Positions 46,283 through 60,488 of a stretch of DNA of 64,000 nt are shown here, in pieces. A program made the translations under genes and the position numbers. Location of the stretch: positions 278,854-342,853 of the forward strand of contig JAQGDQ010000238.1 of assembly GCA_030141605.1 (NCBI GenBank), in the 5' to 3' direction. The notes beneath the pieces are model-generated. The model had not been told where the DNA came from. It saw only the letters and a list, made by a program, of their open reading frames with translations, and ran no database searches. The DNA is from Tubiluchus corallicola (Eukaryota > Animalia > Priapulida). Position 1 is the first letter of the stretch, and every line of letters begins with the position of its first letter.

Positions 46283-46450
46283 AAAGAAATGGTGGTCTTT
46301 TATCCGTTATCAAGCTTCCTAGTCATCTTCTAACTGCTTACTGGAATCAATCATTGTCAAATGTATGTCCACGAGGGATACCGGCACTTATTCCAAGTGT
46401 TTTCTCTAACATTGAACCTGTACTCAATCATGCTTTAGCTGGACAAATAG
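46283..46450 (+). CDS. TTLL4: TTLL4-like tubulin glutamylase-family protein, first confident exon; join(46283..46450,46972..47079,48398..48477,49789..49986,51102..51181,52374..52502,55304..55426,56238..56336,58463..58594,59257..59367,59727..59844,60278..60488), about 519 codons, both ends unresolved
   Basis: PALIPSVFSNIEPVL matches the TTLL4-type PALIYSLFPNVPPTI motif. AG/GT boundaries, phase 1/1. Confidence 0.8.
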
Positions 46451-46971
46451 GTAGGTTAATGCTCGCTCTCTAAAATGGGAAAATAATAAAAATGAATAAT
46501 AAATGTAAACTCATGCAAATTCTTGAAATAGATTTCAAGAACTGGCAACTTCTGCAATTATCACATGTTTATGGGGGATTTAACTTCACTAACTATTTTA
46601 ATATCACTGAATGTTTATATCAAGGTGACAAATGTACCAAATTCAAGTATCGTGTGGAACGAGTTCTTTTGCTTTTTTGGCACTCTTGGAAATGAATTAC
46701 TTCTGAATTTAAAAGAAATTCTATAAAAGATGTCAACGAGCATGAATGTTATAAAACTATAAAGACCTACATTTAAATTTTCTGTTTAACTACAACGACT
46801 AAAAGTAAATCTTGCTGTTATCGTTGTTCTTGTTCTTGTTATTTTGTTTCTGTTCCTGCTGGTGGTGGAGTTCTTATTGATATTTTCATCATCACCTTCT
46901 CTGCCACCATAGGCAGCCTTACTATCAGATTATATCAAACAAAATAGATTGTTTATATTGTCCTTTTTTAG

Positions 46972-47079
46972 TTGAAGAGTTGCCAAGTTCTATTAGAACA
47001 CGTATAATTTGGAAGGTAAAGCCAGATAGGGTTCCTATGGTTAGACACGTTGTTCAACAGTCACAGTTTACCTTGACAG
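46972..47079 (+). CDS. TTLL4: TTLL4-like exon
   Basis: VEELPSSIRTRIIWKVKPDRVPMVRHVVQQSQFTLT. tttttag/GTGAG, phase 1/1. Confidence 0.85.
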
Positions 47080-48397
47080 GTGAGATAGGTCTAATTTGAT
47101 TCAAGTGACTTTGTTCCGAGTTTTACTAAGTTGCCTTGGAAAATAATTGATACCGAGTTGTCAAATTCCCATTACACCCGTTTGTCATTTCTGTGTGAGG
47201 TCGCAGTGCATTGAACAGCTGAATGCTTAGAGTGCACAGTTGCTGACCAAAGTTAGGCACATTTAATTTAACAGTGCCAGATTTGGTCACTGAATGGATG
47301 GGTGCTTACACGGATGATTTTTTGTGCTCACCTGGAGGACTTTTTCGTCTAGCATACTCTCTCGCTATTTACTCGTTGGAGGTGGATGTACAGACATCCG
47401 AATGTGGCTACACACTTGTGTCACCTCAGAGTATTGCCCTTGTTCATGATCCACATCCACATCATATTGTAGGATTGTAGTAGCTTGCAAAGTGCTAACT
47501 TGTTTGCAAACAGTAGATAATCATACCATGTTTTGTTTATGTGTTACACTAAGGAAACAAGATGTCCTGCAAGACATGATTGTCACATTGGTTCAGACAT
47601 TTGATTTTAATTTCGTAACCGGTTGTTTCTATAAGTTCTACATGAAAATGCGTATTTCGCTCTTGAAAATTTCAAAGTTGCAAGGTATAGCGAAACCACA
47701 AAGGGCGTTGGACTAGTTTATTGTTACCTACAGTCTTCTGAATTGATAACGTTCTATCAACAAAAGTTTAAGACCACTATTTCTCCAGTTCGTCTGTAGT
47801 CTATGGCCAACTGAAAGTCAGTATGCATGGTTTGTCCATCATTGTATCACATGACTGAACAATGTACTTTAGGATTTCTGGTGACATCAATCCGACGACG
47901 TCATTATCTCTTTTCTATGACGTCACCAACACCATATTTCTAAAAACCTGTTTTACCGAGAAAAGCATCTTTTCGTACAAAAAATTGATTAAACATTCAC
48001 ATAGAAATCGCTTATTAATTATCAGTGAGATTTTTCCGTCAACAAATCCGCATTGGTACGAGGCTAAAATATCATAAAATGACAACGTAAAATACTGTAA
48101 AATGGGTGAAAATTTTCCCGACTTTGATGACAGGCAGTATAATCAATGACGTCATCAGCTGTGACGTCATCAGCAATCCAAACGGATAATCACGGACCAA
48201 ACTTGCCTAATGCCATCAAGAACAACTAGGGATGGGTAGAAGTGCCGAATTAGTTGTTTTATAATTTTGTGAATAATTGTATATCATTATTACCTATTAC
48301 ATAATATCAATGCGATCGCTTATAGTAGTTAACTGTCTTTAGAGACTTGTCCTGCTGAAGCTGATAATAAAATAAGATTTTGAATATTTCTTTATAG

Positions 48398-48477
48398 AGG
48401 GCAATGACTGGATCAACGCTTGGACTGGACTACCAAGACTTAAATCATTGTTCAGTGAATTGCATGAGGGACAAAAG
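48398..48477 (+). CDS. TTLL4: TTLL4-like exon
   Basis: EGNDWINAWTGLPRLKSLFSELHEGQK. tttatag/GTAGC, phase 1/0. Confidence 0.85.
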
Positions 48478-49261
48478 GTAGCAGCACCTACACAGCCAAA
48501 GATTTAATACCCGAGGCTCATAATGTCTTTCCCCTAAATGACATTGAAACATACGAGGTTTTCGAGTCATCCTTGTACATCCTTTCTTGTTATTCTTCAA
48601 GAATGCAACTTCAAGACGTTTTAAATGACCAGAAATAAATGTAGATCACTCTAGCTTAAAACCACTGGTAGCGTTCACATAGTCATGATCATTCACTTAG
48701 TCATAAGACTGGAGCGGCAAACCATGATTGTAAATTAAATAGAGCTTTACAGATATTTCTGGCACCAAACACTTCTATGCTTCATTTAACTTTATAAAAT
48801 TTCAACTTGATTAGAATGGTCCTAGTAGCATGCAATTTAAGTCAAATTAAAATTAATTAATTAAACAGCTACAATAAACTAATTAATGAACGAATTTTTT
48901 TATATTGAAACAAAGACATCTTAGTTAATCACTATTACAGCAAATCTTAACTCAATTAGATCACGAGAACATGCAATTTTAGTTAAATTAAAATTAATTA
49001 GTTAAAGAACTTAGTTAGTTCGTTAGATAATTAGTTAATTACTTAGCTGTTTAGCGAATTATGACAATTTTTCACCTTGAACCAAGGCATTCTATGTAAT
49101 CATCACACCAAATTTCTATTTTATTGGGTAAACATGTTTGGAGTTATTTGGAGGTCAAAAGTTGAAAAAGTTGAAAAGTGTGATGCACAGAGTGAGTGCA
49201 ATGTTAGTAAGACTTAAAAATGAATCATGAACAGTCAACAATTTTTTTTCAGAGAATCGAA

Positions 49262-49705
49262 TTTATTTATCTATATCTATCTATCTATCTATCTATCTAT
49301 CTATCTATCCATCTATCTATCTATCCATCTATCCATCTATCCATCTATCCATCTATCCATCTATCCATCTATCCATCTATCCATCTATCCATCTATCCAT
49401 CTATCCATCTATCCATCTATCCATCCATCCATCCATCCATCCATCCATCCATCCATCCATCCATCCATCCATCCATCCATCCATCCATCCATCCATCCAT
49501 CCATCCATCCATCCATCCATCCATCCATCCATCCATCCATCCATCCATCCATCCATCCATCCATCCATATATATATATATGTATATACATATATACATAT
49601 ATATATATATATCTCACTATATATATATATATAGTGAGAGAGAGAGAGAGAGAGAGAAAGTTATATTATACATATATATAATATATATATAATTATAATA
49701 TATAA
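49262..49705. repeat. Compound (ATCT)n/(ATCC)n/(TA)n/(GA)n microsatellite
   Basis: Direct inspection. Confidence 0.95.
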
Positions 49706-49788
49706 TTACTATAAGCAATCAGCGTTAGTTAAATAAAAACTTACACTGCTATGCTGCTCATAATTATCTTTAGTTTAATACATTACAG

Positions 49789-58462: not shown

Positions 58463-58594
58463 TGGGGAAACCATCCTGTACGATATGATGTCTTATCAGA
58501 GGACTCCTTATTGCTGCCATCAACTGTATGGATATGATGTCTTGTTTGATGATAACCTGAAGCCATGGCTACTAGAAGTTAACAATATCCCAAG
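58463..58594 (+). CDS. TTLL4: TTLL4-like exon
   Basis: [29 protein letters not shown], with the Mg-binding D and ExN. Confidence 0.94.
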
Positions 58595-59256
58595 GTTTTG
58601 TTAAGATTTTGCTATCACAAAATGTTCTAGAAATCCATACAGTTATTATTTTTATTGCTTTATATCTCCTTTGTTCTCTGCTAACATTTCCCTTAATAAC
58701 TAGTGAAGCTTGCAAGCCATGTTGAAGTTGATTTTTATGAACATCACAAGAAACTGTGTGCTCTTCATGTGGGCATGTGGGCTTGCTGTTATTTTTCTGG
58801 AAATAGTCCTATGAGGATCATCAGGCTTTAATTTGAATTCACAACATTTTAAGCAATTCTATGTAGATTGGATGGTAGAGTATTCAGTAACTTGTAGGCC
58901 TATTTTGTTCATGGACTTGGTAGTCTCTTTGAAAAAAAATGATTGGTAGAAATACTACTGTACAAATGCAAGGAGATGGTTGAATTTCTTCACCACATCG
59001 CAAACCTTAACTTTCCTACTTAAAGGAAGACAGGATGATTTTTCTCATACTGCCCCGTTTTCAAGTTCGATAAAAAGTACACACGACTTTCACTTGAGTC
59101 ATTTTTTTTAAAAAAATAGTATTTTTTCCTTTCAATATTTTAAGGAGTAGATTGTTTTGACGTACAGTACAGTACATTTCGTCTGGTTTTGGTTTGATTT
59201 ATCATTTCGTTGGTAAACTATGAACTTATTTTCATAAAATTTGGTTTTGCTTTTAG

Positions 59257-59367
59257 CCAACGCGATGATCCAATGCAAACGAGTATCAGTGGTCCAATGT
59301 TACGTGATACTTTTAACACAGCTGGTTATCGCTTACCGAAAAAGTCTTCATTGCTGACTCGTGAAAG
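59257..59367 (+). CDS. TTLL4: TTLL4-like exon
   Basis: SQRDDPMQTSISGPMLRDTFNTAGYRLP aligns with TTLL4 SLHSSSPLDISIKGQMIRDLLNLAGFVLP. Confidence 0.88.
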
Positions 59368-59726
59368 GTTGGTGGTAAACCTATCTGAGCCTGTTCTAAA
59401 GATTTTATTATTTAACAAATGGAATTCAGCTCACTGTGCACAAATGGTTTTGCGTGTTTGGCATTACATTACCTTATGACTATTAACTTTCTCACTTATT
59501 ATCAATTGTCGCAGTGTAAAGACTTGTGAGTTTGAATCTCAAAAAGTCGACTTCTTTATTGCTTGGCTTATAATAGCTGTGCAACAGCTTATTGTGGAGA
59601 AAACTATAAATTTGATTTTTATACTTCACTCAGCTAAGTCTGTAGTCTGCTAGAGTTACACGAATATTCAAACCTGTAGCATACGGTGTTACTGGAATTA
59701 AAAATAGCAACTTTTAACATTTTTAG

Positions 59727-59844
59727 CAACTCTTCTACAACTCGTGGCGAATTTCCTGCACCTCCTAAATCCCTCCGGAGTTCGAATCTAGCTGCATATG
59801 AAATCGAAAAGCGTTTACATTTTACAAGAAACTCTTCCGAAGAT
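59727..59844 (+). CDS. TTLL4: TTLL4-like exon
   Basis: NSSTTRGEFPAPPKSLRSSNLAAYEIEKRLHFTRNSSED. ttttag/GTAAGT, and phases 2/0 fit both neighbours. Confidence 0.8.
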
Positions 59845-60277
59845 GTAAGTATCAAGCACTTCTCTTAGTATCATTAAGTTTTTTAGGCATTGTTGCACGG
59901 GCTTTAATTGTGCTGTCTTGTGCAGACCTATGCAAGCAGGTTAAACCTGCAATAAGCACTACACCATATTGTGGAAAAACCAGGTAATTTAATGTGAGTT
60001 ATCTTACAAGGATATTTACAATGGCAACATGGTCGCTAACCTGACCAGAATAGAGTGCTCGTGCGCACAATTACCGTTAACTATATGAACTTTAGCAGTA
60101 TCACCACTGCCAGGAACAGTAACAGCAACACCAGCAACGCACAACCACCACCACCACCACTACCACCACCAACACCAACACCACACCAACAGTAACAACA
60201 ATAGATTGGCAAATGAATAATACAGTAACACGAATGCAGTTTTCAAGGCACACTTATTATTAGTAAACTATTTTCAG

Positions 60278-60488
60278 GAAATAACTGAGCATATTCTAGA
60301 TGATCTGACACCAGGTGATGTACGAGAACTAATAGAAGCAGAAGATGAATATCATCGACGAGGAGGATTTCAACGCATTTTTCCCAGTCCAACGTCTCAT
60401 AAATATTTAAAGTATTTTGAACACAAACGCTACAGTAACTTGTTGTTAGACGCTTGGACGAGAAAATATCACAGCAATCGTAAAGCTG
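60278..60488 (+). CDS. TTLL4: TTLL4-like exon (last confident exon in window)
   Basis: ILDDLTPGDVRELIEAEDEYHRRGGFQRIFPSPTSHKYLKYFEHKRYSNLLLDAWTRKY, characteristic of the TTLL4 C-terminal region. ttttcag/GTAGGT. Confidence 0.93.

Follow-up and report, generated by a model that had tools for sequence, protein, structure and literature searches.

TTLL enzymes are known as cytosolic writers of glutamate, glycine and tyrosine, and in their chemistry ATP phosphorylates an acceptor carboxylate to give an acyl-phosphate, which is then attacked by the amino group of the donor amino acid. A secreted TTL-like ligase was predicted earlier in C7orf58 (CPED1), where the ligase domain, accompanied by cadherin-like and PC-esterase domains, was proposed to add amino acids to cell-surface polymers (PMC2824669). 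Here we describe a gene of the TTLL4 type in a 64,000-nucleotide stretch of DNA, hereafter the window, from the priapulid Tubiluchus corallicola (assembly GCA_030141605.1, contig JAQGDQ010000238.1, forward-strand positions 278,854 to 342,853). We find that its product keeps the catalytic residues of TTLL4 and has lost both lysines that hold the donor glutamate, and that its best predicted first exon resembles a signal peptide.

The described enzymes closest to this protein are TTLL4, a tubulin monoglutamylase of the initiase type (family PF03133), and TTLL6, an elongase with Gln180 and His362 that is known from inhibitor complexes (6VZQ-6VZW). In the TTLL6 study (10.1101/2020.06.07.139295), K283 and K377 bind the donor gamma-carboxylate and are termed invariant in glutamylases, and replacing either with alanine (K283A or K377A) reduces TTLL6 to background activity. 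Y265 and S266 contact the donor through backbone amides, and the alpha-carboxylate is held by backbone contacts that do not depend on which side chain is present. Initiases are marked by an Arg at position 180, which contacts the carbonyl of the acceptor Glu and is found in TTLL3 and TTLL8; in the glycylases TTLL3, TTLL8 and TTLL10 the two Lys positions are occupied by hydrophobic or polar residues.

Gene model and catalytic core

This is a real gene. Twelve exons, each with an AG acceptor and a GT donor, join in phase into a single open frame from 46285 to 60487 with 518 full codons (1556 nt), against about 519 in a preliminary description of this DNA, and every motif named there, kept or changed, is present. 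The kept motifs WISKP, SSRGRGI, KFDLR, VRFA, GYD and LLEVN begin at 49972, 51108, 52408, 52483, 58530 and 58569, and the changed ones, HLTNGEVNQ and QRDDPMQTSISG, at 55338 and 59258. Three elements are interrupted by introns and therefore depend on the predicted splice model: VQKY, the W of GHIW, and the PS that precedes QRDD. The changed codons, by position G at 55350, E at 55353, I at 55422 and S at 59288, are all internal to exons. Three exon open reading frames (ORFs) singly exceed the Pfam TTL cut-off of 20.1 bits, at 37.4, 61.2 and 38.3 bits, and TTL is the only domain above cut-off in the scan of exon ORFs, consistent with membership of the TTL/TTLL ATP-grasp family (PF03133). The gene extends beyond these exons, upstream to a predicted first exon (43749-43821) and downstream to a tentative last one starting at 60636, whose first 15 residues align with the C-x-x-x-x-H-L end of TTLL4 relatives and whose final part enters a repeat with another copy at 44887-44953. 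The full predicted model has 597 residues. Its exons are listed below in TTLL6 numbering, which was transferred through TTLL4 alignments to PDB chains; P0001 denotes the sister protein introduced after the list.

43749 to 43821, + strand: predicted first coding exon, with an ATG, 24 codons, a hydrophobic core and a phase-1 donor in frame with exon 46283
46283 to 46450, + strand: exon with a short linker and the start of TTLL4 homology (PALIPSVF)
46972 to 47079, + strand: exon, TTLL4 N-domain
48398 to 48477, + strand: exon, TTLL4 N-domain
49789 to 49986, + strand: exon with the FPG motif, equivalents of K125 and K174 kept, and a one-residue insertion common to P0001
51102 to 51181, + strand: exon with the phosphate loop and the initiase Arg (TTLL6 position 180) at 51114
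52374 to 52502, + strand: exon with R219 and R241 kept, G238 changed to Ala and L239 to Arg (52480)
55304 to 55426, + strand: exon with T263 and N264 kept, Y265 changed to Gly, S266 to Glu and K283 to Ile, and the N264 sequon lost
56238 to 56336, + strand: exon, C-domain helices
58463 to 58594, + strand: exon with D346, E359 and N361 kept, Asn at 362 and Ile at 363
59257 to 59367, + strand: exon with K377 changed to Ser (59288) and D373 to Gln, one residue shorter than TTLL4
59727 to 59844, + strand: exon, linker to the TTLL4 C-terminal block
60278 to 60488, + strand: exon, TTLL4 C-terminal block, 78% identical to P0001
60636 to 60799, + strand: tentative last coding exon, with weaker support than the others

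The predicted protein is colinear with animal TTLL4 over about 480 residues at 36-42% identity, in agreement with the preliminary description, and is 43% identical to P0001, its sister in the tree with support of 100/100. Its best named matches are TTLL4 proteins, it shares their C-terminal block, and in a tree sampled without animal TTLL5/6/7 rows it falls within a clade of 31 rows, mostly animal and of the TTLL4 type, that has 100/100 support; all three observations place it in the TTLL4 lineage. All nine catalytic and ATP-binding residues (K125, K174, R219, R241, T263, N264, D346, E359 and N361), among them both phospho-transfer arginines and the Mg ligands, are kept and are common to TTLL6. 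The initiase Arg, whose retention had also been claimed, is encoded at 51114, the equivalent of TTLL6 position 180. Of 66 columns with at least 95% invariance among 82 animal TTLL4-clade proteins, 60 are kept; the six lost are G130, P185, G246, L247, D320 and K383 in 12-exon numbering, five of which are altered in P0001 too, to different residues. The net charge of the protein core is +8, inside the span of -1 to +27 found in relatives.

The differences from TTLL4 lie elsewhere: both donor lysines are missing, Y265/S266, G238/L239 and positions 362/363 are changed, and a short hydrophobic in-phase predicted exon stands where TTLL4 has its long N-terminal arm, which would be replaced by a signal peptide and a short linker. 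Nor does the gene resemble CPED1 in architecture. CPED1 is only distantly TTL-like; this gene derives directly from TTLL4, the alignment with which takes in almost the entire model, and has no cadherin-like or PC-esterase domains.

Changes in the donor pocket

The pocket change is real. K283 has become Ile and K377 Ser, so that the two invariant donor lysines of a functional glutamylase are absent and residues of the glycylase type stand in their place; also altered are positions 265-266, now Gly-Glu, and 239, now Arg. The preliminary description had taken the two lysines as donor contacts, and this holds in TTLL6, with GHIW and TSISG mapping onto K283 and K377 through the TTLL4-to-TTLL6 alignments (10.1101/2020.06.07.139295). 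From a homologue set of 270 proteins we counted the 157 that cover the core, leaving out 113 partial ones, and find Lys at K377 in 156 and at K283 in 139, most of the K283 exceptions being bee proteins with Met or Ile. Only P0001 among the 157 has lost both lysines, as have the partial proteins P0223, P0244 and P0237. Because 60 of the 66 near-invariant columns are kept and loss of K283 and K377 is rare, we take the core to be under constraint, with change concentrated on the substrate side. Acceptor-side positions (the P176 equivalent, 362 and 363) are altered too.

The preliminary description further held that the YS after HLTN contacts the incoming glutamate, that its replacement together with loss of the lysines reverses the charge of the pocket, and that the new donor may be a neutral or basic amino acid or an amine. 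The contact itself stands, through backbone amides and not side chains (10.1101/2020.06.07.139295). Since Y265 and S266 bind in this way, the change to Gly-Glu need not reverse the pocket charge, and the argument had overlooked the new Arg at L239, a position that is Leu in 155/157 homologues, which places a new positive charge beside R241. These two points put a basic donor on no firmer footing than a small neutral one; the residues that have replaced the two lysines follow the glycylase pattern. In an AlphaFold model of P0001 (predicted local distance difference test score, pLDDT, 86.8; predicted template modelling score, pTM, 0.88), whose best Foldseek match is TTLL6, the equivalents of L239 and R241 are two apart on one strand, so both side chains likely point into one pocket. 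There the new Arg may either form a pair with the Glu gained at 266, which would narrow the pocket, or take over from a lost lysine. Passages of PMC12340829 added nothing on the donor pocket.

The likeness to glycylases would be convergent, judging from similarity scores: the exon that carries R219 and R241 matches TTLL6 with an E value of 1.5e-10 and PDB 5VLQ, which we take to be TTLL3, with 5.6e-4, and the protein is far closer to TTLL4/6/7 than to 5VLQ, as expected for a lineage other than the glycylase clade.

Bee TTLL4 proteins (P0016, P0020, P0023-P0029, P0031, P0034, P0036, P0037 and P0040) have Met or Ile at K283 and Ala in place of the initiase Arg, and they keep K377. Their N-terminus has no hydrophobic, signal-like start, which rules them out as a secreted parallel; theirs is a separate pocket change in a probably cytosolic protein.

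Predicted signal peptide and related offshoots

The signal-like stretch on exon 43749-43821 has small residues where a signal peptidase could cut, after residue 20 or 22. The donor score of this exon, 9.4, is the best of 122 in-phase ATG..GT candidates between 30000 and 46200 and falls within the range of the gene's own donors. Of these candidates, 29 score at least as high as the weakest true donor, and none of the others is as hydrophobic as this exon. A donor score of at least 8 together with an 8-residue hydropathy of at least 3.0, thresholds set after this exon had been seen, is reached by 1/605 candidates on both strands of the window. Its sequence is unique in the window, and the N-terminus it encodes is the most hydrophobic among 84 animal TTLL4-clade proteins; without it, the frame would have its first Met no earlier than residue 103, past the conserved start of homology. 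The protein is thus probably secreted, as far as hydropathy and splice scores can tell, and since the 597-residue model has no other hydrophobic segment, one would expect a soluble product, either lumenal or secreted. The one sequence run compared with the window matched it only in short pieces outside the exons, which bears neither way on expression.

A second signal-peptide-like ORF, at 36817-36980 (+), follows a TATA-like stretch and lies just before a satellite of about 40-bp units; as a first exon it was rejected, being out of phase with exon 46283.

Among 279 proteins, 12 have a hydrophobic stretch near the N-terminus, of which two, P0226 and P0254, show a clear signal-like start by eye; most of the remaining 10 look like fragments. 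P0226 (XP_013397583.1) is one of three 'TTLL4-like' RefSeq models of Lingula anatina with altered pockets, the others being the partial P0223 and P0244 (accessions of the set: XP_013397583.1, XP_013398235.1 and XP_013413702.1). This complete model has a signal-like start, as in the predicted protein of the window. All three are TTLL4-derived, keep the catalytic residues and have lost the N264 sequon; they differ from the window's protein in being 34-39% identical to it, in the residues of the pocket and in having Gly at the initiase Arg in the two that cover the site. They form a clade of their own within a polytomy, and their common origin with the window's protein is neither shown nor rejected (p-AU 0.44, approximately unbiased test). 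P0001 comes from a 1976-nt assembled contig, likely a transcript, with an uninterrupted ORF whose 5' start is missing. P0254 (JGI/IMG) combines a signal-like start with the head and tail of TTLL4 and lacks most of the catalytic core, either through a deletion in nature or, perhaps, through faulty assembly.

Taken together, the six offshoots (the window's protein, P0001, P0223, P0226, P0244 and P0237) match TTLL4 at 45/46 covered catalytic positions and at only 8/45 substrate-side positions, whereas the remaining clade members keep 728/729 and 564/650, respectively; four of the six were chosen for altered pockets, so the substrate-side contrast is partly one of selection, which leaves the catalytic tally unaffected. 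Their end branches measure 0.39 to 1.6 changes per column. At the K283 position P0001, P0223 and P0226 have Arg.

N264 lies in an N-glycosylation sequon in 79/82 TTLL4-clade members, and this sequon is lost in five of the six offshoots (the window's protein, P0223, P0226, P0237 and P0244) and kept in P0001. Glycosylation at N264 in the endoplasmic reticulum (ER) could block ATP binding, and the change from YS to GE may in part serve to remove a sequon on this catalytic residue. According to passages of a study of sequon use, Leu is tolerated in the middle position and Pro is depleted at +3 (10.64898/2026.09.03.749169). The N361 sequon is followed by Pro, which disfavours its use, and is kept in the Lingula proteins. 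In all, four sequons are left in the full predicted model. Avoidance of glycosylation as the whole explanation is ruled out by P0001, which keeps the N264 sequon, and by the Lingula proteins, which keep that at N361.

A search with the HLTN exon returned no candidate ortholog, and one with the last large exon returned P0001 as the only clear relative. A search with P0001 gave no close relative among 365 matches, a metagenome scan found no ortholog, and the ESM Atlas yielded generic TTL clusters only. Among the papers listed by literature searches outside subscription journals, which for the looser searches means the top 15-20 rows, none describes secreted TTLL4 offshoots. TTL terms do not occur in the Lingula genome paper, in its supplement or in that of a biomineral proteomics paper.

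Elsewhere in the window, a single piece resembling an ABC-transporter exon (54414-54620, -; Pfam ABC_tran, 30.5 bits) lies in the intron before exon 55304 and may be a relic, since a motif search of the window found no other ABC piece. A broken retrotransposon remnant with DUF1759 and DUF5641 (39791-41996, -), presumably of the BEL/Pao type, lies about 1.7 kb upstream of the predicted first exon and is flanked by a near-identical block of about 620 bp (about 38050-38690 and 42920-43540, by eye). A long ORF at 16874-18049 (+) matches galactose-3-O-sulfotransferase, a Golgi-type enzyme (145.8 bits). A 380-bp coding-like block, with about 105 codons after a splice acceptor and no Pfam match, occurs twice at 90% identity (5329-5705 and 25603-25980), with a partial third copy at 5850-5934.

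Proposed activity and competing explanations

We tentatively favour a TTLL4-derived ligase of the secretory pathway whose donor is an amino acid other than glutamate, probably a small neutral one, and whose acceptors are Glu side chains of secreted proteins. After entering the ER and losing its signal peptide, the protein would draw on lumenal ATP to activate the gamma-carboxyl of such a Glu, and the donor amino acid would be attached there as a single branch. In TTLL enzymes, Arg at position 180 makes an isopeptide bond to an internal Glu the favoured product. The new Arg and Glu (positions L239 and S266; residues 272 and 296 in the numbering of the full model) may pair, fill the space of the glutamate side chain and leave room for Gly or Ala. 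Here we infer ER entry, the use of lumenal ATP, a protein acceptor, the identity of the donor and activity itself. It is possible, and we hold it with less confidence, that several animal lineages carry a family of such TTLL4-derived ligases in the lumen of the ER or Golgi, with donor pockets that diversify from copy to copy and different amino acids isopeptide-linked to Glu of secreted matrix or surface proteins.

Several observations weigh against this proposal. Both the first exon and every splice junction are predicted, and the signal call comes from hydropathy and a donor matrix trained on the gene's own 12 donors, not from SignalP. P0001 starts at an internal Met, so localisation cannot be read from it, and it retains the N264 sequon, in which a middle Leu is tolerated. 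In the bees K283 is lost without a signal-like start, so a changed pocket does not imply secretion. Neither the HLTN exon nor the last large exon led to an ortholog that shares the G/E/I/S set. The pocket takes different residues in each offshoot, a pattern as compatible with relaxed selection as with new specificities, and P0254 likely implies that some secreted offshoots are inactive or mis-assembled.

The last two observations also fit a secreted or lumenal pseudoenzyme, which may bind ATP or acidic proteins but performs no ligation, its donor pocket having decayed. Losing either lysine alone inactivates TTLL6, so the data fit a dead enzyme too (10.1101/2020.06.07.139295), which keeps alive the catalytically dead regulator that the preliminary description named as its alternative, and an inactivated secreted TTL-like domain of C7orf58 has been reported in teleosts and molluscs (PMC2824669). 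We nevertheless consider this account unlikely, if the most serious of the rivals, given that 45/46 catalytic and ATP positions persist across the six offshoots at the end-branch lengths given above, and that the window's protein itself keeps all nine, down to the phospho-transfer arginines and Mg ligands.

It is improbable that the secretory enzyme has retained Glu or Asp as its donor, the Arg gained at L239 standing in for the lysines. This Arg occupies a position that is otherwise nearly always Leu and that lies two residues from R241 on one strand in the P0001 model, three offshoots have Arg at the K283 position itself, and the alpha-carboxylate would be held by backbone contacts whatever the side chains. 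Against this, two cations have been reduced to one with a Glu added nearby, and the lysines are described as invariant in all glutamylases (10.1101/2020.06.07.139295).

Another reading, in line with the preliminary description, is a TTLL4 paralog that stays in the cytosol and marks tubulin, or a different protein there, with something new other than glutamate. Loss of both lysines with an intact core, and the positive net charge of that core, are what such a writer would show, and the true first exon could be an alternative one or lie upstream of the 30000-46200 interval searched. The predicted signal-peptide exon, the best in phase and unique, points the other way on simple sequence scores, a Lingula offshoot with an altered pocket shares the signal-like start, and the argued charge reversal involved a backbone contact; we therefore hold this reading to be rather improbable. 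A tubulin-code mark in particular is unlikely if the signal-peptide exon is used, because tubulin is cytosolic.

Very unlikely is a secretory small-molecule ligase, which would join an amino acid or amine to a free acid, a short peptide or a glycan carboxylate. ATP-grasp ligases commonly act on small substrates, and the acceptor-side positions are changed. A peptide-glycan copolymer has been proposed for C7orf58 (PMC2824669), but the initiase Arg, the contact to the acceptor Glu carbonyl, is kept in both the window's protein and P0001. There is very little to recommend a recently silenced duplicate without function, which would fit the missing close ortholog and a degenerate last exon that enters a repeat, but is at odds with 13 exons with intact splice sites and no stop and with 60/66 near-invariant columns kept at about 41% identity to TTLL4.

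Were the protein dead or unexpressed, it would be a lineage-specific curiosity. If the proposed secretory ligase is real, a copy of TTLL4 that acts within the secretory pathway and uses another donor would write a new modification of secreted proteins, much as secretory kinases extended phosphorylation beyond the cytosol. It would also supply a testable enzyme for the secreted amino-acid ligation that was predicted in 2010 for C7orf58 (PMC2824669), and its relatives would be natural variants that reveal how a TTLL pocket chooses its amino acid. If the wider family exists, TTLL4-derived enzymes would write an undescribed class of extracellular modification.

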